Below, piece after piece: positions 13,432 to 62,774 of a stretch of 64,000 nt of DNA (position 1 is the stretch's first letter; each line of letters starts with the position of its first letter). The DNA comes from Diplonema papillatum. Its lineage: Eukaryota. Location of the stretch: the NCBI GenBank assembly GCA_030068145.1, contig JAPJBO010000158.1:245818-309817 (forward strand). The letters are read 5' to 3'. The notes beneath the pieces were generated by a model. It worked only from the letters and a program-made list of their open reading frames with translations, made no database searches and was not told the origin of the DNA. The position numbers were made by a program, and so were the translations under genes.

Positions 13432-13634
13432 TTAGCATCCCAGAAGGAAAGTGGAAAAATAAAGAAGAAACTCTTCTGCATTCTCTGGAAGAAGATGTGA
13501 TGACATCACACATGGACGAAAGGCAGTGTTCTACCCTATGTTAAAACATTGAGTTCGACCAAGAACATCCTCCTCATGCATGAGAGGCAGTGTCCAGCCT
13601 ATGCACTCAAATCACAAATTTCCCCCTCGAACAG

Positions 13635-14850: not shown

Positions 14851-15370
14851 GTGTGCCTACCCCATCAATTGAGCCGGTCTACCCCCGGCTGACCATAATT
14901 TCTTGTCAGTACTAAAGTACTTTTGGGAATATTGACACGAAGTGTGGCTCCTCGCTGGAAGACTTGTGCAGGTGAACTGATGGGGAAAACACTGTGACAA
15001 CAGCCTCCAGGCGTCATTGCAGTAGGACACTGCAGTCAGGCACGCATTGCTGCTGTGCATTGCAGCAGCGGTTTTCGTTCAATGAGAGGAAAGGAATGAA
15101 TAAATCCGAATAGCAACTTACGATGGGGTGATACCCCAAGGGTACTTTGGACACCCTGCGGGGTCACTCCACCTATCCCAACAACAAAATGTTTCCCCCG
15201 AAGAACCGACACCCTGTATATAGTTTCAAGCCTCGCAGATTCCCTCGGAAAATCCGCGAGACAGCCTACTGCTAGACTGCTGATAGACTGTGATATTTTG
15301 GATTATTTTGATGTTTGAATGCAGAATATCTGTAGCGATTGGCCTGCATTAGCCACCAGATGACTAAAGC

Positions 15371-21700: not shown

Positions 21701-22221
21701 CAGTGCGGTGTTGAGCACCTATCCATTCCAAGCACGTTCTTGCAATCCTCCCCCCTGAAACCCCCACCGTGTGCTCTAGTAGCGCGGGTGGCCCTGGCTG
21801 TTGACGAGCTACGAACAGCCGCCTGACAATGTCCTTTCTGCAGACACTCAGGTTCTGCGCTGATGGTCCGCCTTAGGTGTCCGTGGCTTAAGGACCGAAA
21901 CATGGGACCGGTGCGGCGATTCGAAGCACGTTCCCGCATCCTCCCCGAAAAGCCCACCGAACGCCACAAGCATGTACTAACTTGAACATCACGAACAACT
22001 CCAATCTGTACGTCCATTATGGTTGTCAGAAACACAAAGCCCCCTGCACGGCACCCTGCCCGATTGGAAGAGCCCCGAGCGTCCGCCGGGGAGTAGTGTT
22101 TCTTGTGAGAACAAGACATTGCACAACAACACCGAAGTTTCAACGCGACCATCCACCAGAAACAACAGGAGAAAATACTTTCGCTCTACAAAGGAGACCG
22201 AAGGAACCAAAGCCACGTGCG

Positions 22222-22852
22222 ATGTCTTTCAAGAACGTCGTTATCGTCGCCGCGAAGAGAACGGCGTTCGGGTCATTCGGTGGCACACTGAAGAACGTGA
22301 CCGCGACTGACCTGGCCGTGATCTCGTCGAAAGCGGCACTCGAGCAAGGCAACGTGAACCCAGATGACATCGACCACGTCATCATGGGCAACGTCTTCCC
22401 TTCATCACCCGACGGTGCTTACCTCTCGAGGCACGTTGGCCTCAAGTCAGGCGTGCCGATCCCGACCCCTGCGCTGAATGTCAACCGTTTGTGTGGAAGT
22501 GGGTTCGAATCAATTATACAAGGAGCCCGCCTCTTGCAGGTCGGCGAGTCGAAGGCAGTCCTCGCGGGAGGCACGGAGAACATGTCGATGTGCCCGCACA
22601 GCATCTACGGCGCACGGGAAGGCAGTGGGCTTGCGTTGGGCCAATCCAAGCTTGTCGACACGCTGTGGGAAGGGCTCACCGACAGCTACAACAACACCCC
22701 CATGGGCCTCACGGCCGAGAACCTCGCCACGCAGTACTCGATCTCCCAGAAAGAAGTCGACGAGTTCTCCGTCCGCTCGCAGAAGCTTCTCGCGGAGGCC
22801 CAGGCAGCCGGCAGACTCGATGAAGAGATCTGCGTGGCCGAAGTGAAAAAGG
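22222..22852 (+). CDS. Acetyl-CoA acetyltransferase (thiolase II), exon 1
   Basis: MSFKNVVIVAAKRTAFGSFGGTLKNVTATDLAVISSKAALEQGNVNPDDIDHVIMGNVF...NRLCGSGFESI... carries the thiolase N-terminal signature with the active-site Cys. The donor is G|GTTTGC (phase 1). Confidence 0.9.
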
Positions 22853-23225
22853 GTTTGCCCCACATCCCCTCCTACTGATTCTTAACCAAAACGTGTTTTA
22901 TCCTTTGATTGAGCACTGGTTCGTCTCACCTTTCCTTCGTTGCGGCTGTGCCAAGCTGCTGTTGTCAGACGCTAGCGTGGGAAAAGTGTCACAGTCGTTG
23001 GGTAGGGGCCCTCATCCGGAGTGTATACCTGGCTCAAAAGCCACGTTCCCGCGCAGACAAAGTCCCTACGATCTTTTCACTCTAAAGAAATTGTTAGCTG
23101 CGATTTACCAGTTTTTGCTCATGCGATTTGACCTGTACGCGTTGAGTTTAAACCGCTGCCAACGTCCGTAGTATGCTCTTCACTGGCTATCGCAAAAAAG
23201 TATGCTGAAAAAAATGCACACACAG

Positions 23226-23592: not shown

Positions 23593-26500
23593 AGTTTTTT
23601 TTTTTTTTTTTTTTTGGTAACTGAGGGGAGAAATGCGTGACGCACGACCACAAGCCGGACCAAACTTGTGAGTGAGGGACTGTCCGTTTTTCCGTCGGGA
23701 CTTACCCACTAAAACTCAAAACTCAGAGATTCGAGAGATGCAGAGGGTGCTACCCACGGTTCTCACCGTGTACGCGGCGCGATGGAGGGGCCACCCTCCA
23801 CGCGGGACTTGGCCAGTCCTTGCGCTGTCTGCCGCAGGGGTGCCCGGTGGCTAGCCGGATCTTGCGTCGGAACCCCTGCGCTCGCTGTGGCGCGGCTTGG
23901 CGGTCCCCAATTCCGTTTTTCTACGGTCGTTGGGGTGCCTGGTGATCGTCCAGTCTAGGCGAGTCCGGTTGAACCGGCAGACTGTGGCAAGGGTACGATC
24001 ACGCCGCTCAACTCACTCGGGGAGACACCCTCCACAAGCGACCGGCTTGCGACCGGTCTGGGAGGGTGCCTCGGGTGAGGTTGCTGCTGCACCTGGGTGT
24101 TTTGGGCGCTCTTGCTCAGGCTGGGGTCCTGAAGGCGGGCTTTTTTGGGGCAGAACTTTTCCCCCAGGAGTATGGAGCAGGGGGGGTCTTTTCGCTTCAG
24201 CCGGGGCAGTGGCTGATGGGCGGCGATTATTATTATTTCTGGGGGGGCTGGAGCCTTTTTCGGGGGGGGCGGTGGTGGCTGGTCGTCCCCCGGGGGGCGC
24301 GGTTTTTTCAAGAGTTGTGGGTTGCTCAGTCCCACCGGGGGGTCTTTTCTCTTGAGTGCCTGCGGGTTTGTTTCTGGTGCTGGTGCGTTTTTCGGGGGGA
24401 GTGGCTCTCGTTTTGGGGGAGGTGCCTGCGGGTTTGTTTCGGGTGCTGAGGCGTTTTTCGGGGGGGGGAGCTCTCGTTTTTGGGGGGGTGCCTGCGGGTT
24501 TGTTTCGGATGCTGAGGCGTTTTTCGGGGGGGGGAGCTCTCGTTTTTGGGGGGGTGCCTGTGGGTTTGTTGGTGGTTGGCGTTTTTCGGGGGGCTGGGGG
24601 GTTTTCGCGGCTGCCTGCAGCTTGAGCGCCTGTGTGTGTGGATTGGGGCCTTTTGGTAGCCCTTGCTTTTTTGGTGGGGGTCGACCTTTTCCGGGGGGAT
24701 CCAGGGGCTTCGAGGTGGCCGGGGCGGTCTCCCCCTTGCGGACCTGCGGCTTTGGGGTTTTGGGCGGACGCCCCCGGAGAAGCAAGCAGCCGTCCCGGAA
24801 GACGAGGAGATGCCGGCCTCGGACGGCGCGCAGGCTGACGTCGAGCGACCGAAGGCGACGCGACGGGAAGGCGAAGTCCCCCCTCAACGGCAACACCCCC
24901 AGTGCCACCCGCACCCCCGAAAGAAACAGTAGCACCCCAGCCCCCCCAGCACGCCGCGGCCGGAACGGCAGAGGGAGTGCGGGTGGCTCCCCTGCGCCCA
25001 AGGCAGGCAGGAAAGGCGAACCCCAAGAGGGGACCGAGTCAAGTGGACTCGAGGGCGGGTACAACAGGGAGCGGGATCCGAGGCCCCTCACAGCACCCCC
25101 CTATCCAACACGACACCAACATGCAGGTCGAGGAGGCAGAGGCGACGAGGAAGGCCATCCTCAAGCCACTCGAAGCAGGCACGGCGGGCACGGCGTCGTC
25201 GCGCGACGGCTGGCGATGTGCACCCCCGAGGGCAACCCCGTCCGAGCCGTACAGGCAGAGACAGCGGTCGATGGGGACCAAGCGGGACCCGTTGGGGGTC
25301 GAGGATGGGCCACCCTCGTCTGTCCGGCCGCCGCTGGTGAGCCCCCCCTAGGGGGCACCGCTGGACTTCCCTCCCTGACCCCCGAAGGCCGGTGCAGGAA
25401 GTCGCTCTGCCTAGCAAAAGGGTGGTAGAGCCGAACCCCTCCGCCCCCCTGGGTGTGTGTGTTGGTGGTGGTGGTGTGCATGCCGGGTGCCCTTGGTCCG
25501 GCATGCGTGTGGTCGGTCGTGACGGCTGGCCCGCTACAGCTCGCACTTGACCCGGGTGTGTGGCGCTGGGTGGTGAGGGGGGGAACTCGGGGGATCGGCT
25601 CTACCCCCCCAGTGATCGGCATCACTTCCCCTTGCACCTGCCCCCGAGGGGCAGCTTGGGCGCCGGGCGCTCGTCCCTCATCTCCCTGTTCTCCCTGCCC
25701 CCCCTCCTGTGGTTGTTCGTCATTCGGGGGGGGGAGGGGCGGTGGTCCCTGCGCTGCCGGGGCCTGCGGTCCGCCGGGGGCGCCTCCGCCTCCGCCTTCC
25801 GGGGCGCCGCCGCCGCCTCCGCCGCCGCTCGCGACGCTGCTGCTGCTGTTGCTCCTGCTGCTGCCGCCCCCGCCGCCGCTGCTGCTGCTGCTGCTACTAC
25901 TGCTACTGCTGCTGCTGCTGCTGCCTGCCCCGTCGTCCGTGGAGACTTCGTCCAGCTCGAGTTCACCTTCCTCCACCCTTCGCGCCCCGAGGTGCACGTC
26001 CGCGTTCACGAGGGCGATGCGGGCCACCGCCCTTGCCACCACGAAGCTGAGCCTGTGGAACGCTAGGTGGGAGACCGCCGCGTAGGTCTCCCAGTCGTGC
26101 CTCCTGTGCACTGCGTTCACTAGCGCCCGCAGCTCGGGCAGGGCCGACTCGCCCCAGGCGCCGAAGGTGTCCACCACCATCGGGACCAGCAGCAGGTCCT
26201 GTTGCTCAGGAGCCTCCGCCAGGATGGGGCCGTCGTACGTCCGCCGCTTGACGGCCTCGTACTTCGTGGCCGCCCCACCCTCGGTCTCCGCCGCCTTCTT
26301 CACCGCGTTCGCCTGCAGCGGGAAGGTGATCGCCACGTCGATCAGCCTCCTCTTCTCTCCGCGCGTGTACGCTACGTCGACGCGCTTGTTCCTGTGTGGG
26401 TGTTTTGTGAAGGGCCGGTCCTCTAGGACCGGGCAGAGAAGCGCCTCCCTCGCGAGGGCGCCCACCTCGTTGCGGAGCGCTGTGTGCGCCCGCGTGCGCA

Positions 26501-29500
26501 GCCCCGCGTTGAGGCACGTCAGGGAGTGGTCCCCGAAGCGGTCGGCCTCGGCCGCCCCGCAGAGCCGGCACTCGCGTGCCTGCGGCGCCAGCTGCATCCC
26601 CAGCCGCAACCTCACTGCCACTGTGAGCTCGGCTGGGGACATCCAGAGGTCGTCCGGGGCGTTGTGCGCCCCGTAGAGCCACGTGGAGGCGTGCTTGGCG
26701 GCACAGCTGCGGATCCTCGCCTGGCCCCTGACCCCGACGAGCGGATCCCTCAGCAGGCCCGCCTGCCTGGCCGCGGAGATCTTCCCACTCCATTCCTTCT
26801 GCTTGCGTGGCGCGCCCGCTGCCCCTGCTTGCAGTGAGTCTCTGACCTCGGTCAGGACTTCCGGGTAGAGTGCAAGTCTGGGGCAGGCGAGCGACGCCGC
26901 GCATACGGAGTCCTGTGTGGGTGTGATTTGAAGTGGCCCCCCCCCGGGGGCTCTCGTCAGCAGCGGCAGACCCTTGATGCCCTCCAAGGTCGCCGCCACC
27001 CCTGCCACGGCCGCCGAGTCGGCGCACGAGTGCATCCCTAGGCCGCCCAGCCTCAGGGGCAGCGAGGCCTGCACCCACTCGGTGTCCCCCAGCTCGGCCC
27101 CGAGGGTCCTCGCCAGGGCTCGCCGCATGAAGGTATCCACCCTCCCGTAGTCCGCCACCGGGCCCGTGGCCCGCATGAGGGAGACCACGCAGACGAACCC
27201 CGCGCACGAGTTCAACAGGGCCAGGGCCGTGTGTGGGTCCGGGAGGCTGGCAATGGCTCTTGCCCGCTTTTCGGCCCTGTCCAGGACCTTCGCCACCGCC
27301 TCCCGTACCGCGGCCTCGGACCCACAGGGTGCCCCCAGAATCTCCCAGCTCTCCAGTGAACACCGGGTCATGGCCGCGAACTCGTCCGGCACCCGTTCGC
27401 CCGCGAGACAGACCACCTCGCTCTTCCCTCTATTGAGGTCCATCCCCACCGCGCCCCCCTCCAGCTCGAATGCGGCGAGCCACACGATCAGGTGCTCCCA
27501 TAGCCCCGCCGCGGCTCCATCATCCAGGTAGAACGCTCGCGCGTCCAGCTGGGACACCCGCAACGGGTCCGGTTGTGCTGGGGGGGCCGGCTCCTGTACC
27601 GGGGGGGCTGGTTCCTGTATCGGGGGGGCTGGTACCTGTACCGGGGGGGCTGGGCCCGCCCCTGCCCCGTCCACCTCCATGTCCTGTTCCTGTGGTTGTT
27701 GTTGTTGTTGTTGTTGTTGTTGGGGCTGGGCCGGGGCCAGGGCCCCCTGCGGAATATCATCGGCCCCCAAGGGTGGCAGCCGCTCGGCCAGGGACAAGTC
27801 CACTCTCCGCAGGACCTTCTCCAACACGAGACAGAAGAACAACGGCCCGAGTGGGTCCCCCTGTTGCACTCCGCACTCGGACCAGACCACTTCCTCCCCG
27901 AAGGAAAGCCGTGACCTGCGCCCGTACGCCGCTATCGCGTATGGCAGGAGGCCTGGGGCGCTCTCGGCCACTGCCTGCAAGATGGCCTCCCTGCTCACCT
28001 TGTTAAAGGCGTTCTGCAGGTCCACCTTCAGGATCCCCCGCCCTTGGCCGTCGCGCCGGTACGCCTCTCCCACGCACCGCATCGCGCAGACCATGGCGTC
28101 GGCGCCGGACTTCATCCCGACCCCGGTCTGGCCGCACCTCTCCAGGATGGGCTTGACCGCCTGCACCACGGACTTGTCCCTGGCCAAGATCTTGGCCGCC
28201 ATCCTCCTCAGGACCTCTCCACAGGCGATGGGCCGGAGACCCCCGTCCTTCTTCTCGAGGGCCACTAGCCTGGCCCCAAACCCGTGCGGCCGGGCCTCGT
28301 CCGGGAGGCTCCCGGTGGCGATCCGCGCGATCACCGCCACCAGAGGGGCCCTTATCGGCGAGCCCGGGCTCACCAGGTCCAGCAGGTGCTGCGCCGACAG
28401 CCCTGACGGCCCTGGTGCCGTCCCTCGGGGGAGCGCCCTCAGCGTCTTAATGACGATCCCCCAAGAGACGTCGATCTCCGCGTTCGCCTGTGGTGGTATT
28501 GGGGGGAGGGGGGGTTCTGGCGCCTGTGGGTGTTTTTCCCGCATGACCCCCAGTGTCTCCTCGTTCACTGGGGCCACCTTCGCCGCCGAGAGCGCGGCCA
28601 CCGCCTTCCCGAACCATCGGGCCTTCGTCCTGCGAATGACCTGCTGGACGGTCTTCGCATCCAGCTGGTCGGCGTCCTCCACGTCTGTCGCCAGCCCGAC
28701 GAACCGCCCGATCTGGTTGTCGTCCTCGTCCATCACGAGGAACCGGACCGGGGGCACGCCCGCCTGCCTCCTGCCTGCCGCCACTTCCTGCGCCTCCGTC
28801 CAGAGCTCGCCGAACCTGCCGTGCGCCCAAAGGTGGCAGCGACTCCTCAGGGCGGCCGCCACCTTCTTCCTCCCCCCTCTGCGCGGTTTGAAGAGGACGA
28901 GGGTGGCGAAGGAGTGTAACCGGAGCCACCCGGTTACGCTCCCCGTGGCCGCCAGCTGTAGCGCCTTCGCCAGCTGCGCGGCCACCACCAGCTGCGCATC
29001 CAGCGGGATCCGCTCCAGCTTGGGCACAGCCAGCGCGCTGATCTCCGCGAACGAGAACGGCATCTCCTCCTCGAACGCTGCGTGGGCCGGCCCCGCCGCT
29101 GGGTCGGCTGCCTGGCCTGCCGCCGGGGCCCGGCGTCGGTGGTTGTTGGCCGGTGGTGCCGCCGGGGCTGCGTCCGGGCGGTACGCCCGCGACAGGGGGC
29201 ACATGTTCCTGTGCCTGCCCTGGACTCCCGGCAGGCGCCCGCAGAGGCAGACCGGCGGCGGGGCGGCTGGGGCCGGTGGGGGGGGCGCGGCGGGCCCCGG
29301 GTGCGGTTCGACGCATCCATCCACGGTGAGGTCGTCCCCACCGCGCCCCAGCGATCTCGTTGCGGACCTGTGTGTGTGTCCCCCCTTCCCCTTCCTGTTG
29401 GGTGTCCTTTCTGGGGGTGCCGCGCTCGCCGACGAGCGGCCGAGCGCGCTCAGCCGCCTGAGGTCTTCGGCCGCTTGGCGGGGTTCTCGGCACCAGGGCC

Positions 29501-31100
29501 CGGCCCCTGGGCCTCCCCCATTGGCGCGTCGCTCCCCGGGTCCTTGTGCTCGCCGGGTTGGGGGGGGTCGGCCTCTGGCCGCTGCGACCCCATGAGGACG
29601 TCGCAGCCCGGGGGTCCGGGGGGATCTTTTTTGATGGCAAGGGCGGCGAGGGCGAGGGCGAGGCGGCGCTCCTTGTCCTCTTTCATTTGGGCGAGGGCCT
29701 CTGTGGCCTCCGCCGCCTCCAAGAAGGCGACGTCCCTCCTCCCTTCCCTCTCCCCGACCTGCAGTTGCAGGGATCTGCGAGGCCACTGCCTCGCCTCTTC
29801 GAGGGTGATTCCCTCTCGCTCCCTCCCCTCGCGCGTCATCTGCGCCTTCTGGGCCTCGTACTCCTGGGAGAGTACGAGAGCCCCTGCCGCGTGCGCCCTC
29901 AGCCCAGCCTCCATGTACCGGACGCACGTCCCGTACATGTTCCCCCAGGCCCGGGCCGCCACCTCTGCCCTGTGCATGGCGGAGTGGTGCTCCACCTCTC
30001 CCCGGGTGGCGACCACCGCCCCGCAGCCCGGGCAGACCTCGCCCGCGAAGCCCAGCTCCGTAAGCGCGAGCGGCTCGGACTCGCGCATGGCTGCCCACAG
30101 GGCGGCGGCTTCCGTGAGGGCTGCCCACCGGATGGCGGCCCTCAGCTCCTCCTCCTTGAGCAGGAGCGCCTCCCCGGGGTCGAAGGGGCTGTCCCACCTC
30201 CACTCCGGAGCAGGCTCCGCCGGGGGGGAGGCCCGCTCCGTGGGTGCGGCGGGCGGCTCCGGGAGCTGGCGAGAGAAGGCCCACGGGGCTACAGGGGCGG
30301 CCTGGAACCGGGCGGCGACCGGGGAGGACCCGGTGGCTTGGGGGGGGGAGAAAGTGGAAGACACACCGTCGACTGGCTCCCACCTTCGCGGCAGACGACC
30401 CATCAGCCGTGGGTCCTGCGGGTGCGCCGCCTCGCACGCTGCGTCGTCGCAGCCTTCGATGTCGCACGCAGCGACGTGGCGGTGCCGGCACCCGGCCCGA
30501 CGGCACCCCAAGGCCGTCAGGGCCTCGATGCAGGCCGGTGTGGGCACGTGCCTGAAGCGGCACGGCTGGCGGCTGCATCCGCCGGGCGAGTTGAACTCGC
30601 GGCAGAGGGGGCGGTCCCCCCTGCGGTCCTCCTGCGGCGGGGGCGCTCTCCCGCCGGCCTTCTGCGGTGCAGCCGTCGCTGCCCTTCTCGATGCGGCCTC
30701 TCCGGGCCCCTGTCGTTGCTGTGCGGTCGTCACCGCCTTCGACGTCGGCTTCGATGCCGTCGGCTGCGCGGCTTCCGCCTTCCGCCCCTCGCTGACATGC
30801 GGGGGCTTGCGGCCAGGCGATCCGACTGTTTTCCAGCCGGATCGGGTCATCCTGGGGGGCGCGCGTTGTGTGTGTGTGCGTGGTTCTTTGTGTGTGCGTG
30901 CGGGTGTGTGCGCGTGTTCTTTTTTTTTCGTGCGTGTGTGCGGGGTAGTAGGTGGTGGGGGTAGGTGGTGTGTGAGTTGTTAGCGCGCGTGTGCGAGCTA
31001 GGGGTGAACACAAAGTGCGGGGCTTGCGTCCTACACCGTGCGCCTCTCTAGCTTGCTTCCTTTGTTACCAACTTCCTTTGTTTTCTCCTCCAGGACAACA
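23593..31100 (-). mobile_element. Full-length non-LTR retrotransposon with RT and C-terminal CCHC zinc finger plus restriction-like endonuclease (R2/CRE/NeSL-type architecture) and a poly(A) tail, inserted in thiolase intron 2
   Basis: There is a single 1950-aa ORF at 31013-25161 on the minus strand. RT motifs are present: TAPGPSGLSAQHL, LEKKDGGLRPIACGEV, KVDLQNAFNKV, QQGDPLGPLFFCLVL, YLDDGAAAG, GMDLNRGKSE. Downstream of RT are CRLCGAAEADRFGDHSLTC and RTRAHTALRNEVGALAREAL, then KRVDVAYTRGEKRRLIDVAITFP, which resembles the R2 CCHC plus PD-(D/E)xK region. The 3' UTR is about 1.5 kb and ends in T22 on the + strand at 23593-23614. The 5' boundary is approximate. Confidence 0.8.
24340..24580. repeat. 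Tandem repeat, about 60 bp unit x4, inside the LINE 3' UTR
   Basis: TGCCTGCGGGTTTGTTTC.GGTGCTGAGGCGTTTTTCGGGGGGGGGAGCTCTCGTTTTTGGGGGGG is repeated. This explains the repetitive pseudo-ORFs on both strands. Confidence 0.7.
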
Positions 31101-48123: not shown

Positions 48124-50825
<2,702 letters not shown>

Positions 50826-51160: not shown

Positions 51161-53875
51161 TCATGCAACGCAGAACGGGGTCCGGGGCGGCTGGATGCCC
51201 TGCCTGTATGGGTCCCGCGTCCAGACGTCTGCCAGTTGCTCAGCAGTCGGGACCCATACAGTCTCGAGGACACACTGGTGTTCCTCCAAGACGTCGCGGA
51301 CCTGGCACAGGATGAAGTTCCCGAGCTGGGTCTTCGACTTCCAGTTCCTCAAGCAGTTGACGGCGGGCAAGTTGTCGACGAAGATCCTGATCGTCGACAG
51401 CGGAGAGCGAGAAGCCGCGTACGCAATCGCGAACTTCGCCGCCGTCAGCTCAGCGAAGAAGATGTGCTGCGGGACATCCCTCCACGGGCCCCACATCGCC
51501 ATGGAACCCACCAGCCAGGCCCATCCCTGCATGCTGGCGTCGGACCACGCCTCCACGAGGGTGTCCCGTTGCTTCGAGTCGAAAACGACCCACCGGTTGC
51601 CCGACAGACGCCGTCTCACTCCCGCAAGGAACGGAAAAACGTCGTCGCTCACGCGGACCAGCGACTCCCAGCCCAGGGAACCGGTCAGGACCTGGTGCGC
51701 CAGGGTTCCCATCCACGCAAGCACCGGGCTCACCCTGCAGAGCGGCGTGCCCCACACCGTCCACGCCCAAATAGCGGTCCCGACGACCTTCCAAACGCCA
51801 CGCAAAGTCATCCGCGTCGAATCGACCGAGCAAAAGAGGAGGTGCGCCTTCCTCGCCCACTCTTGCTTCAGCCGGTATCTCTTCGCCGCGAGGTCGAACT
51901 CGACTCCCAAGACAACCGGCGTCGAGCTGGGCTCGAGGACGGACTTCTCGTCGTTGACCGTCATGCACACCTTGCGGGCGCGTCGCAGGACTCGGTCGCG
52001 CACAGCGCGAAGCGCGTCCGGACAGTCACCGACGAGGGCCCAGTCGTCGTACCAGACTATCCTATCGTCCCCGGCGGTTTCCGTGATGACCAGCGCAGAG
52101 TCCTGTGCGATCACGGGCGAGAACGACCAGCCCATCGTAAGCCGGCGCCACCGATACAGAGCCACGCCCCCGTCGGGCCTCCTGGTCCGGAGCCCGAAGA
52201 AAGCCGACGTCGACCGTCCCACTGGGAACTGGAAGAAGTAGGACTTCAGGTCGACGACGACTGCGTGCGACTTCGACATCATCTTGGCGATGACCTCGTC
52301 GACACGCAAGAGGCTGAACTTCGGCGGGGGCTCCATCAGCTCGTTCAGCGGGCGGCCATCGACGATGGCACGGGAGTGGTGCTCCCCCTTCTCGACAGCG
52401 AACGCCGGCAGTACGCACTTCAGCGGCTCCGAGCGGGGAACGCGTTCCACAAAGCCGACGCCCTCCAGCGTCACCGCATGGTGCGCAAACGCGTCGCTCT
52501 TCCGACCCGGCACGAGCGGCGTGCCCAGTAGCTTCCGTCGGAAAGCGTGTCCGTCCGTGAGGAGGTCGAGCAGGCTGTGCAACCGGGCTCCGGGCCTGGC
52601 GAGATCCCGGAGCGCACGGAGGTCGATCGGAGGTACCGCCGTGACGTCAAGCGGCTTCGCCGACCTCGGAGCACCGACCGCCGGGACGAGACCTCTGGTT
52701 TCCGGCGGAAGGTATCCGAGGGGGACTGTGGTGGGAGGGTCGTAAAAGTGTGGGTGAAGCCGTAGAAAAAGCCTCCTTCCCCTGAGCAACCTGGATCTCC
52801 GCGATTTCAGGCCCACGACCTGCCGAGGCAAAGAGCCGGCGTCGGGCATGGGGTGTTTCTGTCGCGTCGGGAAACGGCTGTCAAAGAGAGGCGGGTTGGC
52901 TAGTCCCGGGAGGCGCCCTGGAGCACCCGCTGTGCCGACTCCAGGGTCTTCAGGGTGTCGACGGCCGGGCCCTCGACGTAGTACCGGAAGACACTCTTCT
53001 TCCGGTGGCCCGTGACTGCCATCGCGTCGTCCTCGCTCATCGTCTCCCGCAACGCGGTGGCCGCGCCCCTCCGGAAGCTCTTCGTCGAGTAGGACTAGCA
53101 CTTGGTGGTACTCGAGGTCCGGGAACAGCAGGGAGTTCGGACCCGAGATCCCGTCGAGGTGCCGCAGGACGATGCGGGACAGAGGAGCGGCGACGAGTCC
53201 GTACCGCCCCTTGTCTGCCTGGCGCGACTTCTCCCTCCAAATGTCGACGAGGATGGTGGGGGACGGGCCGCGGCGGGACACCGTGAGGTCCCTCTTCCGC
53301 AGGCTCAGAACGGTTTCCGAGCGAGACGCCAGCGTCCACATCAAAGCCTGGGCGGCGGCCGTCGGGAGGTCCTTCTCCGCCTCTGCGGCCACCGCACGCA
53401 TGACGGCCTCCTTCGACGCCGCCACCCCTCGCTTCACCGGCAGCGCCACGGCCATTCTTCGGGCGCCCGTCAACAGCCGTTGCAACCACGGAAGGCGACG
53501 TTGCTGCACGGGCACCCCTTTCGACTCGAGGTGGGCTTGCAGCAGACCGACGTACCTGCCGACCGTCGAGCCGGAAACCTGACGCACGGTGATGAGCCAA
53601 GCCCCCCAGGCAGCGATCTGGTCTGCCAGGCTCTTCGGCGGTGACGGCACCGAGTCCAGAAACAGCTGGAAGCTCGTTAGCACCGTCCGGGTGGCGGTGG
53701 AGTGATGGCGACCGCGCCCGAGCTGCGCGATGTACTGCGCCATCTGGAGGGGGTCGTCGGAGTTCACCCCCGTCTGTCGTGCGGTCTTGACCAAGGCCTT
53801 CGCCTGATCGCTCGCGGTGCCGCTCTCCCACAGACGAGTGTCGAGGAGCCGCCTCGCTCTCGCCGGGTCCATCAA
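51161..53875 (-). CDS. pol ORF of the YR retroelement: tyrosine-recombinase N-terminal half, then RT, then RNase H
   Basis: YR-like: ...SGSTVGRYVGLLQAHL...AAQALMWTLASRSETVLSLRKRDLTVS..ILVDIWREKSRQADKGRYGL...LLFPDL, which shows the Cre-like box I Arg and the K-beta region. RT: VVVDLKSYFFQFPV, YRWRRLTMGWSFSPVIAQ, VWYDDWALVG. RNase H: EAWSDASMQGWAW, FFAELTAAKFAI, VDNLPAVNCL, VWVPTAEQLADVWTR. The YR C-terminal half (HxxR...Y) was not found in frame, so it may be degenerate or frameshifted. Confidence 0.7.
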   Translation of the reverse strand: MMDPARARRLLDTRLWESGTASDQAKALVKTARQTGVNSDDPLQMAQYIAQLGRGRHHSTATRTVLTSFQLFLDSVPSPPKSLADQIAAWGAWLITVRQVSGSTVGRYVGLLQAHLESKGVPVQQRRLPWLQRLLTGARRMAVALPVKRGVAASKEAVMRAVAAEAEKDLPTAAAQALMWTLASRSETVLSLRKRDLTVSRRGPSPTILVDIWREKSRQADKGRYGLVAAPLSRIVLRHLDGISGPNSLLFPDLEYHQVLVLLDEELPEGRGHRVAGDDERGRRDGSHGPPEEECLPVLRRGPGRRHPEDPGVGTAGAPGRLPGLANPPLFDSRFPTRQKHPMPDAGSLPRQVVGLKSRRSRLLRGRRLFLRLHPHFYDPPTTVPLGYLPPETRGLVPAVGAPRSAKPLDVTAVPPIDLRALRDLARPGARLHSLLDLLTDGHAFRRKLLGTPLVPGRKSDAFAHHAVTLEGVGFVERVPRSEPLKCVLPAFAVEKGEHHSRAIVDGRPLNELMEPPPKFSLLRVDEVIAKMMSKSHAVVVDLKSYFFQFPVGRSTSAFFGLRTRRPDGGVALYRWRRLTMGWSFSPVIAQDSALVITETAGDDRIVWYDDWALVGDCPDALRAVRDRVLRRARKVCMTVNDEKSVLEPSSTPVVLGVEFDLAAKRYRLKQEWARKAHLLFCSVDSTRMTLRGVWKVVGTAIWAWTVWGTPLCRVSPVLAWMGTLAHQVLTGSLGWESLVRVSDDVFPFLAGVRRRLSGNRWVVFDSKQRDTLVEAWSDASMQGWAWLVGSMAMWGPWRDVPQHIFFAELTAAKFAIAYAASRSPLSTIRIFVDNLPAVNCLRNWKSKTQLGNFILCQVRDVLEEHQCVLETVWVPTAEQLADVWTRDPYRQGIQPPRTPFCVA

Positions 53876-54880: not shown

Positions 54881-55600
54881 CAAGCATCGACGCCATCACC
54901 ATCATTCAGCAAGATGGAGACAGTCTGCGCCAGGAGACCGCTGAAGTGATGCCGTACCTGAGTATCCGCAGGACATACCCTTCGTACAGTCAGGCTGAAC
55001 TTTCCCATCAAGACGCTGGCCCCCGCCATAGGCTGCGTAGACGAGAAGAAGAGGGCACGCGGCGCAGCAAGACGACGAACTCCCGCGAGCCGGACTTGCC
55101 TGCCCGGCGGATACCACGGGCTGGGATACCACGGTGGGATACCACGGGCTGGGATACCACGGTGGGATACCACGGGCTGGGATACCACGGGCTGGGATAC
55201 CACGGGCTGGGGTACCACGGGTGGGATACCACGGGTGGGATACCACGGGCTGGGATACCACGGGCTGGGATACCACGGGTGGGATACCACGGGCTGGGAT
55301 ACCGCAGGCTGGGATACCACGGGTGGGATACCACGTGCTGGGATACCAAGGGCTGGGATACCACGGGTGGATACCACGGGCTGGGATACCACGGGCTGGG
55401 ATACCACGGGCTGGGATACCACGGGCTGGGATACCACCATGGGCTGTACCCACGGCGCCGTCGCCCACCGTGCCGAAGCCGTTCGCCGCTACACGCCTAC
55501 GACGGGACGACTTGCGACCAATTGTAGTACGTGAGGAAGTGAGAGACCGGCACCATCCTGAAGAGATGGTCACTGCACTCTCTCTCTTTCTCATTCCTTT
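54881..55600 (+). mobile_element. Diverged 3' fragment of the (CT)n-tailed LINE family containing an expanded 10 bp minisatellite
   Basis: ...TTTCCCATCAAGACGCTGGCCCCCGCCATAGGCTGCGTAGACGAGAAGAAGAGGGCACGCGGCGC... aligns to 50530-50640 of the longer copy. The tail ...GAAGAGATGGTCACTGCACTCTCTCTCTTTCTC lies at 55560-55590. Confidence 0.6.
55105..55440. repeat. 10 bp minisatellite (GGGATACCAC / GGGCTGGGATACCAC)n, about 33 units
   Basis: Seen in sequence. It produces the repetitive ORFs 54859-55527 (+) and 54880-55594 (-). Confidence 0.9.
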
Positions 55601-55785: not shown

Positions 55786-58257
55786 ATGCGGTTCGTCGGC
55801 CGACTTGTCAACTGTTCGCTGCGCGACACGGATGACGAAATCACGGTGATTCGGAAGCGGGTCGTGCTCCTGACGCTGTTGCTCACGGCGGTTATCTGCG
55901 TGACCGCGTCGCTTTTGCAGATGAACGTGCTGCTGCAGTTCCCGGGATGCGCGCCCCTCGTCGTGGGTTTCATGGCCGCCGGGTGCTTCGTGTACATACT
56001 GCTGACGCGGTCGGGGACTCAGGCGGAAGTGCAAGCCATTCTGATCGGGCTGAACGTCGGAATCCTCCTGCTCGATTGGAACGCGGAGGTGAACTACGGC
56101 GTCCGGTTCTGGCCGATTTTCGTGGTTGTGGCCGACTTGCAAATAATATGCAGACTCGACTGGCGCATGATTGTCGGCAGCACGGTAGGGGTCGTCTGTT
56201 GGATCCTCGTCACGTCGTTGGAGGACTTCACCCGATTCGGACTGTGGGACGTGTCGGCTGACGACAGCTTGTACGACGCGAGAAGAGACGCGGTGCTTAG
56301 TTGCTCGAAGCCTCCTTGCTCAAGCAGTGTGCTCTCGTCGGTGTATACGTGCTTCAGTTCCGTGCTCGTCATTGTGGTCAACCTCCTCGTCACGAAGTCG
56401 CTCGCTGAAAAAGTCAGCGAAAGCGAGGCCATCGTGAAGAACGCAGGGCGCAAGGCAGACTTGGTCGCCCGAGCGCTGGGCATGTTCGACATGGAGCTCG
56501 CGCGGGACCACCTCGAGACCACCCGCGCCTACTCCCTCCCAACGCAGCTGCGCGTCGCGTTGACGAGAATCGTGAGCATCGTGCTGGCGATCAAGCCGTT
56601 CATCCCTTCGGCCGTCATCGAAGAGTGCATGGGCGCGTCTCGCATCGACTTCCACCAACCGAGACTGGAGGACATGCCGGCGACCTGGACGTCGACGTGC
56701 ACCTCGTCCCTTGGGCCGCCTGCTACGCACGACACGCCGGAGGCGTGCATCGTCTTCACCGACATCTTGGCCTCGACGAAAACGTGGGAAGCGGTCCCAG
56801 ACGCGATGCGAAAGGCGTTGAGGCTGCACAACCACGCGATACGCGGCGCGATAGAGGAGTGGTTCGGCTACGAGGTGAAGACGATAGGCGATTCGTTCAT
56901 GGTCGCGTTCGACGACCTGTCGTCCGGCATCAACTTCGGACTCACAGTGCAAGAAGACCTGTTCACTCTGGAGTGGCCGGCGAGCTTGCTAGGAGTCGCG
57001 CAGTGTGCGAGGAGCATCGACGGAGACTGGAATGGGCTGCGGGTCCGCGTTGGTGTCAACTTCGGCGAAGTTGTTGCGGAGCAGAACCCGTTGACGCAGC
57101 GGTTCGACTACTTCGGGCACACCGTCAACAAAGCCGCCAGGCTCGAGGCCAACGGCATTCCGGGGTTCGTTTGCCTGCCCAGCGACCTGTTCGCGGGTGT
57201 TCTGCCGCACTGCCTCAAACCGCACTACGTGGCCCGCAAGCAGTGCCTGACCTTCAAGGGCGTCCAGGGCGTGACGGAAGTCGCGTCGCTGCAGTCGACG
57301 GCCCTGTCGAAGAGGCGGCCTGCCGACGCTCTACCGGAATCCCTGCGAATGCCGTCGGGCAACGTCGCGGGGCCCCCCGAAGCGGCCACGCAGCCGCCGC
57401 CGCCGCCGCCACCGCCGCCGCCGCAGCAACACGTGAATCCGTTCCTCACCGCGTTGGACCCCGCGAAAAAGAAGTTGTCGGCGGTTTCGTGGCCGAGTGC
57501 GTTGGGCGACGCGGAAGTTGGCTCGGCGAGGAACGGCACCGCCGCGGCGCAGCCGGGGCAGGCCAGGATCCTGGGCAGCCTTAGTGCGGTCAGCTTCGCG
57601 CCGGAAGCAGAAGACGGAGCGGATACCTCAAGCCACGACGGTGCGCCGACGCCGGCCGAGCAACAGCCGCGCGGGGCGCGCCGCCCCATGCACCCGCCCG
57701 AACGGCTCAGCCTGGTGCTGGCCGACGACGGCAGCCCCGCGGCGGCGGCGGCGGCGAAAAGCGAGGCGGCGGCGCCCCACGGCGCCGCGCTGCCGGCCGA
57801 CCTGCAGTCGACGCCGCTCCGCGCCAAGGGAACCGGAGGAAGCCCGGCCGCGGCGGTGTCCAGCCATTTTGGCGTCGTTTCGCCGCTCACGACCCTCAGC
57901 TCGTCCGAGAGAGACACCGGCTACAACTTCGCGCAGCAGATCATCCAGCAGATGCAGAGGAGGGCCTCTCCCGCGGAATCAAGCTCCAATTCGTGCTCGT
58001 CGGGATCGGAGGCCAGCGTGAGCGTCATCCGCAAGCGTTTAAACATCAACCCGCTTCGCACCATAGCGCTTAGTCGCAAAGGGCTGATGCAGCACAGCTT
58101 CAGCACGTCGTTCCTCCTCCGAAAGAGCGCCGGTAGCTTCCGCTGCCAAGGCGAGGCTAAAGACGCGGTGTCTACTGCTGCGAGAAGTGACATGGTTTGG
58201 CTTCGCCCCCTTTTTGTCGCCCCAGCGACATGCGATACAGTGTATTGTGAACGCTAA
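55786..58257 (+). CDS. Class III adenylyl/guanylyl cyclase: N-terminal polytopic membrane region, catalytic cyclase-homology domain (CHD), low-complexity Ala/Pro/Ser-rich tail
   Basis: Hydrophobic segments span residues about 20-210. CHD: ACIVFTDILASTKTWEAVPDAMRKALRLHNHAIRGAIEEWFGYEVKTIGDSFMVAF...LRVRVGVNFGEVVAEQNP..QRFDYFGHTVNKAARLEANGIPGFVCLPSD...TFKGVQGV carries the canonical F.DI..(S/F)T...KTIGD..M...RiGi..G.v..GvvG....Y...G..VN.AaR.E motifs. The antisense ORFs 56320-56952 and 57225-57917 are artefacts. Confidence 0.85.
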   Translation: MRFVGRLVNCSLRDTDDEITVIRKRVVLLTLLLTAVICVTASLLQMNVLLQFPGCAPLVVGFMAAGCFVYILLTRSGTQAEVQAILIGLNVGILLLDWNAEVNYGVRFWPIFVVVADLQIICRLDWRMIVGSTVGVVCWILVTSLEDFTRFGLWDVSADDSLYDARRDAVLSCSKPPCSSSVLSSVYTCFSSVLVIVVNLLVTKSLAEKVSESEAIVKNAGRKADLVARALGMFDMELARDHLETTRAYSLPTQLRVALTRIVSIVLAIKPFIPSAVIEECMGASRIDFHQPRLEDMPATWTSTCTSSLGPPATHDTPEACIVFTDILASTKTWEAVPDAMRKALRLHNHAIRGAIEEWFGYEVKTIGDSFMVAFDDLSSGINFGLTVQEDLFTLEWPASLLGVAQCARSIDGDWNGLRVRVGVNFGEVVAEQNPLTQRFDYFGHTVNKAARLEANGIPGFVCLPSDLFAGVLPHCLKPHYVARKQCLTFKGVQGVTEVASLQSTALSKRRPADALPESLRMPSGNVAGPPEAATQPPPPPPPPPPQQHVNPFLTALDPAKKKLSAVSWPSALGDAEVGSARNGTAAAQPGQARILGSLSAVSFAPEAEDGADTSSHDGAPTPAEQQPRGARRPMHPPERLSLVLADDGSPAAAAAAKSEAAAPHGAALPADLQSTPLRAKGTGGSPAAAVSSHFGVVSPLTTLSSSERDTGYNFAQQIIQQMQRRASPAESSSNSCSSGSEASVSVIRKRLNINPLRTIALSRKGLMQHSFSTSFLLRKSAGSFRCQGEAKDAVSTAARSDMVWLRPLFVAPATCDTVYCER

Positions 58258-58391
58258 AAAAGACGTAGACACGCGCGTTTCAGTGGTTCATCCGAACTCC
58301 CAACCTGAAAACGAGACAGGGTAAAAACAAGCGGAGAACGAACAACTGGCACGCACAAACAAAACGAAGCGCCTAAAAGTGTCCAACTGAA

Positions 58392-61300
58392 GAACACCCA
58401 GTGAGGAACACCCAGTGAGGAACACCCAGTGAGGAACACCAAGTGAGGAACACCCAGTGAGGAACACCCAGTGAGGAACACCCAGTGAGGAACACCCAGT
58501 GAGGAACACCCAGTGAGGAACACCCAGTGAGGAACACCCAGTGAGGAACACCCAGTGAGGAACACCCAGTGAGGAACACCCAGTGAGGAACACCCAGTGA
58601 GGAACACCCAGTGAGGAACACCCAGTGAGGAACACCCAGTGAGGAACACCCAGTGAGGAACACCCAGTGAGGAACACCCAGTGAGGAACACCCAGTGAGG
58701 AACACCCAGTGAGGAACACCCAGTGAGGAACACCCAGTGAGGAACACCCAGTGAGGAACACCCAGTGAGGAACACCCAGTGAGGAACACCCAGTGAGGAA
58801 CACCCAGTGAGGAACACCAAGTGAGGAACACCCAGTGAGGAACACCCAGTGAGGAACACCCAGTGAGGAACACCCAGTGAGGAACACCCAGTGAGGAACA
58901 CCCAGTGAGGAACACCAAGTGAGGAACACCCAGTGAGGAACACCAAGTGAGGAACACCCAGTGAGGAACACCCAGTGAGGAACACCCAGTGAGGAACACC
59001 CAGTGAGGAACACCCAGTGAGGAACACCCAGTGAGGAACACCCAGTGAGGAACACCCAGTGAGGAACACCCAGTGAGGAACACCCAGTGAGGAACACCCA
59101 GTGAGGAACACCCAGTGAGGAACACCCAGTGAGGAACACCCAGTGAGGAACACCCAGTGAGGAACACCCAGTGAGGAACACCCAGTGAGGAACACCCAGT
59201 GAGGAACACCCAGTGAGGAACACCCAGTGAGGAACACCCAGTGAGGAACACCCAGTGAGGAACACCCAGTGAGGAACACCCAGTGAGGAACACCCAGTGA
59301 GGAACACCCAGTGAGGAACACCCAGTGAGGAACACCCAGTGAGGAACACCCAGTGAGGAACACCCAGTGAGGAACACCCAGTGAGGAACACCCAGTGAGG
59401 AACACCCAGTGAGGAACACCCAGTGAGGAACACCCAGTGAGGAACACCCAGTGAGGAACACCCAGTGAGGAACACCCAGTGAGGAACACCCAGTGAGGAA
59501 CACCCAGTGAGGAACACCCAGTGAGGAACACCCAGTGAGGAACACCCAGTGAGGAACACCAAGTGAGGAACACCCAGTGAGGAACACCAAGTGAGGAACA
59601 CCCAGTGAGGAACACCCAGTGAGGAACACCCAGTGAGGAACACCCAGTGAGGAACACCCAGTGAGGAACACCCAGTGAGGAACACCCAGTGAGGAACACC
59701 CAGTGAGGAACACCCAGTGAGGAACACCCAGTGAGGAACACCCAGTGAGGAACACCCAGTGAGGAACACCCAGTGAGGAACACCCAGTGAGGAACACCCA
59801 GTGAGGAACACCCAGTGAGGAACACCCAGTGAGGAACACCCAGTGAGGAACACCAAGTGAGGAACACCCAGTGAGGAACACCCAGTGAGGAACACCCAGT
59901 GAGGAACACCAAGTGAGGAACACCCAGTGAGGAACACCCAGTGAGGAACACCCAGTGAGGAACACCCAGTGAGGAACACCCAGTGAGGAACACCCAGTGA
60001 GGAACACCCAGTGAGGAACACCCAGTGAGGAACACCCAGTGAGGAACACCCAGTGAGGAACACCCAGTGAGGAACACCCAGTGAGGAACACCCAGTGAGG
60101 AACACCCAGTGAGGAACACCCAGTGAGGAACACCCAGTGAGGAACACCCAGTGAGGAACACCCAGTGAGGAACACCCAGTGAGGAACACCCAGTGAGGAA
60201 CACCCAGTGAGGAACACCCAGTGAGGAACACCCAGTGAGGAACACCCAGTGAGGAACACCCAGTGAGGAACACCCAGTGAGGAACACCCAGTGAGGAACA
60301 CCCAGTGAGGAACACCCAGTGAGGAACACCCAGTGAGGAACACCCAGTGAGGAACACCCAGTGAGGAACACCCAGTGAGGAACACCCAGTGAGGAACACC
60401 CAGTGAGGAACACCCAGTGAGGAACACCCAGTGAGGAACACCCAGTGAGGAACACCCAGTGAGGAACACCCAGTGAGGAACACCCAGTGAGGAACACCCA
60501 GTGAGGAACACCCAGTGAGGAACACCCAGTGAGGAACACCCAGTGAGGAACACCCAGTGAGGAACACCCAGTGAGGAACACCCAGTGAGGAACACCCAGT
60601 GAGGAACACCCAGTGAGGAACACCCAGTGAGGAACACCCAGTGAGGAACACCCAGTGAGGAACACCCAGTGAGGAACACCCAGTGAGGAACACCCAGTGA
60701 GGAACACCCAGTGAGGAACACCCAGTGAGGAACACCCAGTGAGGAACACCCAGTGAGGAACACCCAGTGAGGAACACCCAGTGAGGAACACCCAGTGAGG
60801 AACACCCAGTGAGGAACACCCAGTGAGGAACACCCAGTGAGGAACACCCAGTGAGGAACACCCAGTGAGGAACACCCAGTGAGGAACACCCAGTGAGGAA
60901 CACCCAGTGAGGAACACCCAGTGAGGAACACCCAGTGAGGAACACCCAGTGAGGAACACCCAGTGAGGAACACCCAGTGAGGAACACCCAGTGAGGAACA
61001 CCCAGTGAGGAACACCCAGTGAGGAACACCCAGTGAGGAACACCCAGTGAGGAACACCCAGTGAGGAACACCCAGTGAGGAACACCCAGTGAGGAACACC
61101 AAGTGAGGAACACCCAGTGAGGAACACCCAGTGAGGAACACCCAGTGAGGAACACCCAGTGAGGAACACCCAGTGAGGAACACCCAGTGAGGAACACCCA
61201 GTGAGGAACACCCAGTGAGGAACACCCAGTGAGGAACACCCAGTGAGGAACACCCAGTGAGGAACACCCAGTGAGGAACACCCAGTGAGGAACACCCAGT

Positions 61301-61912
61301 GAGGAACACCCAGTGAGGAACACCCAGTGAGGAACACCCAGTGAGGAACACCCAGTGAGGAACACCCAGTGAGGAACACCCAGTGAGGAACACCCAGTGA
61401 GGAACACCCAGTGAGGAACACCCAGTGAGGAACACCCAGTGAGGAACACCCAGTGAGGAACACCCAGTGAGGAACACCAAGTGAGGAACACCCAGTGAGG
61501 AACACCCAGTGAGGAACACCCAGTGAGGAACACCCAGTGAGGAACACCCAGTGAGGAACACCAAGTGAGGAACACCCAGTGAGGAACACCCAGTGAGGAA
61601 CACCCAGTGAGGAACACCCAGTGAGGAACACCCAGTGAGGAACACCCAGTGAGGAACACCCAGTGAGGAACACCCAGTGAGGAACACCCAGTGAGGAACA
61701 CCCAGTGAGGAACACCCAGTGAGGAACACCAAGTGAGGAACACCCAGTGAGGAACACCCAGTGAGGAACACCCAGTGAGGAACACCCAGTGAGGAACACC
61801 CAGTGAGGAACACCCAGTGAGGAACACCCAGTGAGGAACACCCAGTGAGGAACACCAAGTGAGGAACACCCAGTGAGGAACACCCAGTGAGGAACACCAA
61901 GTGAAAAACACC
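58392..61912. repeat. Satellite DNA: 14 bp unit CACCCAGTGAGGAA x about 250, with sporadic CACCAAGTGAGGAA variants
   Basis: Perfect periodicity over 3.5 kb. The three about 1200-aa minus-strand ORFs here are pure repeat artefacts. No spacers, so not CRISPR-like. Confidence 0.97.
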
Positions 61913-62009
61913 AATTGAATTTGCGAATTCGGAAGAGAGGTCAGTCCCGCAAAGAAGTAGACGCGACCTGACTTAGCTCCTTCACCAACAGGTCACAACG
62001 GCGTGCATC

Positions 62010-62774
62010 ATGATGCGATTAACACGGGCCGGCTCTGAGCCCGTTGCCGATTTTGTAAACGATGTGATCGAACGAGTACTGCAGTGTCTCGAAAGAAGCG
62101 ACGGCACTCTGCTGGCAGTCGTCGGCAACAGCATTTTGGCAGCCTGGAACATGGCTAAACCCTGCATCCACCACTTCGAGAGCGCCATCCACTTCGCGAC
62201 CATTCTGCTGCAGAATCACGATCAGGATCACCACGAGCTGCGCGTCATGGACGACTGCCTCAACATCGGACTCGCCACAAGCTCTGCTCTGTGCGGTTCT
62301 TTCGGCACCGACAGCCAACGTTTCCTCACGGCTATGGGACCGTGTGTGTCCCTGTGTTGGAATCTTGCCAACACGGCATCCCTCTTGAACGTGACATCGC
62401 TCTACACAATGCCGAACGTGAGTAAGCATTTCTCGTGGCTGTGCGCCGAACACGGGAACAAGCTGCGTCCCGTGGCAAAGAGCAGATGGTGCCGCACCGG
62501 GATCGACGGCGATGACTCCGTATTCATTTTCCAGGTCGAGACGAAGCCAGAGAAGTGGGGAAAGCGCCTCATCCCCGCCACCTGCGACATCAGCAATTCA
62601 ACGGAGGACAACCCTCTCACTCTGTTTCCGTGGAGCAACGCGACCCACTGGAATGAGTTCCTCGCAGGGAACTTGGACGCCATCAAGTCACGCGCGCAAG
62701 AAAATGAGGATCACACCCTCGTGTCCATCCTTGATTGCGTCGGCAGCGACCTCTTTTTGAAACACCAATCCTAG
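62010..62774 (+). CDS. Degenerate second cyclase-homology domain (pseudo-catalytic CHD). Either an exon of the upstream cyclase or a separate gene.
   Basis: ...DGTLLAVVGNSILAAWNMAKPC..ESAIHFATILLQ...HELRVMDDCLNIGLATSSALCGSFGTDSQRFLTAMGPCVSLCWNLANTASLLNVTSLYT...GNKLRPVAKSRWCRTGIDGDDSVFIF is collinear with CHD motifs. GNS replaces the metal-binding GD(S/A). GLATSSALCG replaces GIHSGPVVAG. GPCVSLCWNLAN replaces GDTVNLASRME. A polypyrimidine/AG acceptor (TCCTTCACCAACAG|G) lies at 61977-61991. Confidence 0.6.
   Translation: MMRLTRAGSEPVADFVNDVIERVLQCLERSDGTLLAVVGNSILAAWNMAKPCIHHFESAIHFATILLQNHDQDHHELRVMDDCLNIGLATSSALCGSFGTDSQRFLTAMGPCVSLCWNLANTASLLNVTSLYTMPNVSKHFSWLCAEHGNKLRPVAKSRWCRTGIDGDDSVFIFQVETKPEKWGKRLIPATCDISNSTEDNPLTLFPWSNATHWNEFLAGNLDAIKSRAQENEDHTLVSILDCVGSDLFLKHQS

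Follow-up and report, generated by a model that had tools for sequence, protein, structure and literature searches.

A predicted two-exon adenylate cyclase gene of Diplonema papillatum with a satellite-enlarged intron and a conserved, degenerate second cyclase-homology domain

Do two open reading frames (ORFs) that flank a 14-bp satellite array in the nuclear DNA of Diplonema papillatum belong to one gene or to two? The ORFs lie at positions 55786-62774 of a 64,000-nt window, which is the whole stretch of DNA analysed and to which all coordinates below refer. The upstream ORF encodes a class III adenylate cyclase domain and the downstream ORF a degenerate second cyclase-homology domain (CHD), here called CHD1 and psiCHD2. 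A first-pass annotation of this DNA had proposed either a single gene whose intron was invaded by the satellite or two adjacent genes. We put the probability at roughly 0.85 that 55786-62774 is one two-exon protein-coding gene for an adenylate cyclase, with an intron enlarged by the satellite. The features under this reading, with transmembrane abbreviated as TM, are as follows.

55786-58194, + strand: exon 1, 803 codons for six TM helices and a stalk, CHD1 and a low-complexity linker; matches GenBank protein KAJ9463444.1
56701-57315, + strand: CHD1, class III adenylate cyclase catalytic domain (Pfam PF00211), protein residues ~306-510
58195-58257, + strand: read-through tail of the upstream ORF, 20 codons and TAA, translated only upon intron retention
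58195-61991, + strand: GT-AG intron, phase 0, 3797 nt; junction placed by identity to the GenBank protein
58388-61912, + strand: 14-bp minisatellite TGAGGAACACCCAG, 252 units, 93% of the intron
61992-62774, + strand: exon 2, 260 codons and a stop, for psiCHD2 and a C-terminal helical tail with a W-x-W...W/Y..F motif
61992-62552, + strand: psiCHD2, degenerate cyclase-homology domain by profile and fold, protein residues ~799-990

In the ORF list, ORF1 occupies 55786-58257 on the plus strand and encodes 823 residues followed by a stop, in agreement with the first-pass annotation, which had the cyclase ORF end at 58257. ORF2 occupies 62010-62774 on the same strand and encodes 254 residues. A protein search with ORF1 returned a GenBank entry with 100% identity to it, KAJ9463444.1, a protein of 1063 residues entitled 'Adenylate cyclase [Diplonema papillatum]'. 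When 55786-58194 was joined to 61992-62774, the translation reproduced KAJ9463444.1 exactly, so the annotators already hold ORF1 and ORF2 as exons of one gene. The reading frame of ORF2 opens upstream only at the TAG of 61974-61976, and exon 2 is uninterrupted over its 260 codons and retains every residue that is invariant in the family. Base composition also changes at the exon boundary. Over exon 1 the G+C content at third codon positions (GC3) ranges from 0.80 to 0.91, and over exon 2 from 0.72 to 0.76; at the donor it drops from 0.81 to 0.38, GC falling with it at 58195, and in the unique intron flanks it is 0.38. The read-through tail of ORF1 is non-coding in composition and has no counterpart in the homologues.

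The intron begins at ATG|GTTTGG and ends with an AG at 61990-61991 that is followed by GTC, which places the acceptor where the first-pass annotation had expected it, near 61991. A branch-like CTGAC and the tract CTCCTTCACCAACAG lie upstream of the acceptor. The diplonemid splice consensus consists of (G)/GTATG at the 5' site, CAG at the 3' site and a C/A-rich tract before the latter (PMC12621601); the termini and flanks of 58195-61991 fit this consensus and the reading frame is continuous across the junction. Unique sequence accounts for 272 of the 3797 nt, 193 nt upstream and 79 nt downstream of the array, and this is the size of an ordinary diplonemid intron. An Rfam scan found no RNA gene in or near the intron. 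According to the genome paper (PMC10161547), 41% of D. papillatum genes have introns, nearly all of them GT-AG, with a median length below 1 kb and a minority that are far longer and carry repeats or transposons. The present intron shares canonical GT-AG ends and internal repeats with that minority and is not qualitatively different from other introns of the species: at 3.8 kb it exceeds the median and is far below the 72-kb maximum. The annotated model, the fused homologues described below and the composition shift give indirect support to the predicted removal of 58195-61991 from the mature mRNA.

The array itself was described by Tandem Repeats Finder as 251.8 copies of TGAGGAACACCCAG with 99% matches and no indels. 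Direct counting gave 252 units, namely 236 with the consensus sequence, 14 that share one C>A change (CCAAG), a first unit that deviates and a last unit that is cut short. The plus strand bears all of the copies, and none occurs elsewhere in the window, where the chance expectation is 0 matches. The units run head to tail and in register, and their length falls within the 11-99 bp that defines a minisatellite. The first-pass annotation had described a perfect 250-copy satellite about 140 bp after the stop; an array does follow the stop, at 130 bp, but it has 252 units and, with 99% identity, is near-perfect rather than perfect. From the array to ATG 62010 the distance is 97 bp. Each unit contains a TGA, and the array thereby has stops in all three plus-strand frames; each also contains a CAG and a GTGAG. 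Minus-strand ORFs of 1175-1209 residues that run across the array were dismissed as artefacts of the reverse-complemented unit, which has no stop codon. The 14-bp unit would have expanded inside an intron of normal size to 252 copies (3.5 kb), likely by slippage or unequal exchange. Because degenerate units stand at both edges and a single variant recurs, the array appears to reflect in-place expansion and homogenisation of a short motif. The genome paper's supplement (PMC10161547) counts 100,426 tandem arrays of 2-50-bp units in D. papillatum, which reach 29.9 kb and make up 6% of the genome, so a 3.5-kb array is unremarkable in this species. A second minisatellite, with the unit GGATACCACGGGCTG (22.6 copies, 91% identity), is located at 55109-55437, in what is presumably 5' untranslated or intergenic sequence some 350 bp before the start codon of the cyclase.

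The cyclase assignment of ORF1 holds: PF00211 matches residues 317-464 with E=6e-23 and 81.8 bits, where the cut-off is 21.9. CHD1 has the full set of six catalytic residues (D, K, D, D, N and R, in the motifs FTD, VKTIGD, FDYFG and VNKAAR), that is, two metal-binding Asp, the substrate-specifying Lys and Asp, and the transition-state Asn and Arg. The Lys-Asp pair implies specificity for ATP (PMC6005667). The six CHD1 residues are kept in 117-119 of 119 homologues. The nearest relatives of known structure are the catalytic domains of Trypanosoma brucei GRESAG4.3 and GRESAG4.1 (E=2e-21), which are also the best fold matches and with whose catalytic motifs those of CHD1 align. CHD1 is thus predicted to be a catalytically complete class III cyclase domain. 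In an AlphaFold2 (AF2) model of the full-length protein, residues 1-305 form six TM helices in one N-terminal block and a helical stalk. The linker of residues ~511-798 is low-complexity and is disordered over 513-795 in the same model.

The second domain is far more divergent. ORF2 alone scored E=0.026 and 14.6 bits against PF00211, below the Pfam cut-off of 21.9. When a family profile of psiCHD2 built from 44 sequences was compared with the PDB, the 39 hits were all class III cyclases, the best being the C2 domain of human soluble adenylate cyclase (ADCY10; E=5e-9). The AF2 model of psiCHD2 has a mean confidence (pLDDT) of 79 and a predicted TM score (pTM) of 0.70, and in a Foldseek search of the PDB its top 50 matches were all cyclase domains, with E down to 3e-9 and TM scores of 0.63-0.69 normalised to the target. 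By profile and by modelled fold, psiCHD2 is therefore a genuine cyclase-homology domain, which bears out the first-pass annotation in assigning a second CHD to the ORF about 100 bp past the satellite. A direct profile-profile comparison of CHD1 with psiCHD2 (hhalign) was used for column mapping only, and the claim of homology is based on the PDB profile search and the fold.

Each of the six mapped catalytic positions is substituted in psiCHD2 (M, A, N, T, S, N), and in 110 homologues none of these positions conserves its catalytic residue. TIGDS of CHD1 becomes VVGNS, and TVNKAARLE becomes CVSLCWNLA; the change of GD to GN and the loss of the N/R motif reported in the first-pass annotation are real. 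The domain has conserved residues of its own: G38 and H61 are invariant, W52, G93 and G116 occur in at least 90% of the sequences, W52-N53 and a Q-R-F-V-T motif are also among the invariant or near-invariant residues, and the C-terminal W-x-W...W/Y..F tail motif is common to some relatives. Because the catalytic residues are lost while the domain's own invariant residues are kept, the alignments point to a conserved pseudo-enzyme domain and not to a decaying one. The intron falls where the disordered linker gives way to the last domain. Residues 799-811 form the first beta strand of that domain in the full-length AF2 model, and this strand runs across the exon junction 803|804. A full-length MAFFT alignment had placed this strand within exon 1 instead (RTIALS); that placement was rejected, as the junction-spanning alignment is gap-free to the next helix and the AF2 model agrees with it. 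Within exon 1, at 58021-58194 (residues ~746-803), there is a second, weaker look-alike of this strand, RKRLNINPLRTIALS, some 45 residues ahead of the junction; a full-length alignment matches it to the strand of the homologues, and it could be due to chance or be the remnant of a local duplication of the exon end.

A domain like that of ORF2 lies C-terminal to the catalytic domain on the same polypeptide in 110 of the 120 listed homologues, with a spacer between the two domains of 94 residues in the family median versus 304 residues here. Among the fused homologues are ORFs that Trinity transcripts of Diplonema japonicum and Rhynchopus humris contain in full, as well as uninterrupted genomic ORFs of 697-708 residues that stand in tandem arrays on long ENA contigs. 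Homologues align from codon 1 of exon 2 (VTTACI...), six codons upstream of ATG 62010. With the exact match to KAJ9463444.1 and a fused order that is family-wide, in single transcripts and intronless ORFs alike, the proposal of one gene with a satellite-invaded intron is well supported.

No stand-alone second-domain gene was found in an exhaustive search with the psiCHD2 profile, which returned a few short second-domain-only calls. All three of these calls that could be read on a contig, in other assemblies, follow immediately after a first-domain ORF on the same strand, and each was rejected as a stand-alone domain. A frameshift cuts P0133 (locus L003) off from CHD1, a frameshift inside CHD1 does so for P0188 (locus L005), and a 320-nt GT-AG intron stands between CHD1 and P0232 (locus L004). 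This intron has a textbook donor, ATG|GTATGC, and its position is about 10-12 residues from that of the D. papillatum intron. P0187 was likewise rejected, being a 5'-truncated transcript with a CHD1 tail. For a fifth short call, P0178, whose sequence starts with the first strand of the domain, no contig position was found.

Several observations weigh against the single-gene reading. The junction 58194/61992 is a prediction from the gene model and the homologues. The older gene model of this locus, P0002 (EukProt EP00659_Diplonema_papillatum_P006542), terminates exactly at the donor site (...AARSDM). The same model also skips residues 308-401, which removes most of the catalytic core, and that skip is clearly a false intron. 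PMC10161547 and its supplement report structural errors in 125 of 319 inspected automatic gene models of D. papillatum and name tandem repeats as a main source of spurious introns. Because so many automatic models are inaccurate and repeats yield spurious introns, the GenBank model is by itself not proof. The intron is also well above the species median of less than 1 kb, and its roughly 243 CAG and 250 GTGAG decoys could make splicing inefficient. The linker, at three times the family median, might conceal another intron. As to the domains, the direct comparison of the CHD1 and psiCHD2 profiles is weak (E=0.05), and the full-length AF2 model, a single chain that cannot show a homodimer, does not dock CHD1 with psiCHD2.

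These points leave room for two other accounts of the locus. Two genes might lie in one polycistron, the first polyadenylated after 58257 and the AG at 61991 acting as a spliced-leader acceptor, which would yield a stand-alone 254-residue pseudo-cyclase from ATG 62010. ORF1 ends in a stop of its own, an ATG for ORF2 lies 18 nt past the acceptor, P0002 ends at the donor, and, according to PMC10161547, Euglenozoa all add a spliced leader at AG acceptors and co-transcribe their genes, so that AG 61991 fits either reaction. We nevertheless regard two genes as very improbable, since conserved first-strand residues (VTTACI) would be left upstream of ATG 62010, the 20-codon read-through tail looks non-coding, 110 of 120 relatives are fused, and a stand-alone second-domain gene was not found: the three inspectable short calls are pieces of fused genes (two by frameshift, one by the 320-nt intron), P0187 holds the tail of CHD1, and P0178, which starts at the first strand, was not placeable. 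The two-gene alternative of the first-pass annotation, with its stand-alone pseudo-cyclase, is thus not supported. Alternatively, the satellite might be breaking the gene, with decoy sites that block or divert splicing and produce a truncated cyclase without psiCHD2, exon 2 then becoming a pseudo-exon. Exon 1 ends in phase 0 and the array units, which begin with TGA, read CAG|TGA, so that any decoy acceptor would bring a stop right after ...AARSDM, exactly where P0002 ends; the decoy sites are numerous, and the homogeneity of the array points to recent expansion. This account is scarcely more probable than the previous one, because exon 2 is intact over 260 codons with all family-invariant residues and the W-rich motif of the C-terminus, has a coding-like GC3 (0.72-0.76) and is joined to exon 1 in the current GenBank model, and because repeat-rich introns of up to 72 kb are spliced in D. 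papillatum (PMC10161547). The end of P0002 could be a coincidence, the end of a contig, or a product of a decoy acceptor. The locus is a clean test case for how the spliceosome handles an intron with hundreds of identical decoy sites.

A separate alternative concerns the protein rather than the gene. The active sites of class III cyclases form at a head-to-tail dimer interface, and the mammalian C1 and C2 domains are complementary, C1 providing the metal-binding Asp residues and C2 the Lys, Asp, Asn and Arg. Within a single chain, CHD1 and psiCHD2 might likewise form an intramolecular C1/C2-type pseudo-heterodimer with one active and one regulatory site; having two cyclase-homology domains in tandem on one polypeptide would fit, as would the C2 domain of human soluble adenylate cyclase as the best PDB hit of the psiCHD2 profile. 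The residues are not complementary, however: psiCHD2 is without Lys, Asp, Asn, Arg and both metal-binding Asp, and CHD1 has all six. There is also a single block of six TM helices, not two. A Foldseek comparison of the full-length AF2 model with two-domain cyclase chains gave no support for such a pair; against C1-C2 of AC9 the model superposes as one domain only, with a TM score of 0.34 and an rmsd of 23 Å, which is weak evidence against the pair given its pTM of 0.44 and the ~280-residue disordered linker. As far as catalysis is concerned, the residue states already contradict a C1/C2 pair, and we consider it unlikely as a whole. The description of psiCHD2 in the first-pass annotation as a classic C2-like domain of heterodimeric cyclases does not hold for the same reason.

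Because CHD1 has all six residues and psiCHD2 none, a CHD1:psiCHD2 pair would be without a complete active site, and cAMP synthesis would then have to come from a CHD1:CHD1 homodimer of two chains; this oligomeric state is inferred from the residues. From the spliced mRNA of the single-gene reading, the protein would consist of six TM helices, a helical stalk, CHD1, a disordered linker of about 290 residues, psiCHD2 and a short helical tail, and two chains would pair via CHD1:CHD1 for catalysis, as in trypanosome and mycobacterial cyclases. The single six-helix block and long helical stalk are consistent with such pairing, as in Rv1625c. psiCHD2 would serve as a non-catalytic regulatory or dimerisation module and is probably regulatory. 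How it would act can be stated only tentatively: self-pairing of psiCHD2 into a conserved degenerate pocket or clamp and capping of CHD1 by psiCHD2 as a tethered auto-inhibitor are equally plausible, and other roles make up the rest. A wider and tentative proposal is that psiCHD2 may be an undescribed diplonemid-wide regulatory module in a cassette of CHD1, linker and psiCHD2 placed on many input domains, the six-helix membrane block among them, and that in the present gene the satellite intron, with its about 250 decoy sites, could additionally set the ratio of full-length to psiCHD2-less enzyme. If this were true, psiCHD2 could restrain CHD1 as a tethered auto-inhibitor or sense a nucleotide or some other ligand.

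Known cyclases resemble the predicted protein in part. T. brucei GRESAG4.1 and GRESAG4.3 (PDB 1FX2, 1FX4) are likewise euglenozoan, hold all six residues in one domain and need to homodimerise. The receptor-type cyclases of T. brucei have a large extracellular domain and one TM helix, in contrast to the six TM helices and psiCHD2 here, and to our knowledge trypanosome receptor-type cyclases have no second cyclase-homology domain. Mycobacterium tuberculosis Rv1625c/Cya (PDB 7YZK) has the same single six-helix block and helical stalk followed by a complete CHD, and a homodimer like that of Rv1625c would recreate an assembly of 12 TM helices and two CHDs. Rv1625c ends after its CHD, whereas the diplonemid family adds a long disordered linker and a dead CHD. 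The mammalian transmembrane adenylate cyclases, ADCY10 (C1-C2) and the alpha/beta soluble guanylate cyclase share two CHDs of which one is unable to bind the catalytic metals, and in these enzymes the degenerate site is used for regulation. Their halves are complementary and build one joint active site, whereas here the first domain appears self-sufficient and the second has lost all six residues. The transmembrane enzymes also have two six-helix membrane blocks, in contrast to the single N-terminal block modelled here, and the modelled domain arrangement does not match AC9. The architecture is a variant of the known tandem-cyclase theme.

The psiCHD2 profile matched 1318 representative sequence clusters at E<=1e-10. 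Most of the matches are proteins of 650-900 residues with the domain near the C-terminus, and every named hit is a diplonemid. An alignment-based homologue search with psiCHD2 gave no matches, and the exhaustive profile search of representative sequences was used instead. The CHD1-psiCHD2 cassette also occurs after ammonium transporters, ectodomains of the solute-binding-protein type, PA/laminin-G domains and dCache domains. Pfam annotation of all 120 listed homologues gave a single PF00211 each; the large diplonemid cyclase expansion carries a conserved second domain that Pfam does not detect. Three of the profile matches, P0122, P0129 and P0134, have ammonium-transporter domains fused to the cassette. 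One ammonium-transporter fusion, KAJ9448406.1, is annotated in D. papillatum only as a 'putative ammonium transporter', and in P0129 Pfam at E<=0.01 detects the transporter domain only. In an assembly presumed to be diplonemid, intronless family members stand head to tail at L001 (ENA ERZ25333236 ctg704, 1.72 Mb) and L002; at least four of them fall within a 10-kb stretch, and a single contig bears dozens of the listed homologues.

According to the supplement of Valach et al. (2023, BMC Biol 21:99), the diplonemid ancestor gained two adenylate cyclase families, one of which has up to 80 members; KAJ9463444.1 belongs to the annotation of the same genome release. Those text and supplementary files of that study that could be searched make no mention of a second degenerate domain, and no description of it was found in the literature text searchable here. 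The gene and its annotation as a single gene are already known, and little changes at the locus itself, as repeat-laden introns are routine in the D. papillatum genome. What is modestly new is the family-wide combination of a complete first and a fully dead second domain. As a pseudo-enzyme domain, psiCHD2 is a candidate regulator of cAMP signalling in a group that ranks among the most abundant marine protists.

Elsewhere in the window, three long ORFs with a reverse-transcriptase domain (PF00078) were found at 25161-31013 (minus strand), 48124-50745 (plus strand) and 51161-53875 (minus strand), the first of them within a block of about 70% GC. The DNA directly upstream of the cyclase gene is rich in retrotransposons, in agreement with the account that PMC10161547 gives of the stretches between gene clusters. 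One reverse-transcriptase ORF has at its 5' edge a (TC)n microsatellite of 186 copies (48143-48509). Two adjacent fragments of eukaryotic large-subunit ribosomal RNA (Rfam RF02543, model positions 2411-3161 of 3401; 268 and 124 bits) occupy 5728-6299 on the plus strand; they are far from any complete ribosomal DNA unit in the window and may be a ribosomal DNA fragment or pseudogene. Three further features on the plus strand are other genes or exons of the host: an ORF with an RRM domain at 7405-9750, an ORF similar to M24 prolidase/aminopeptidase P at 13549-14892, and an exon for the N-terminal part of a thiolase at 21982-22878.

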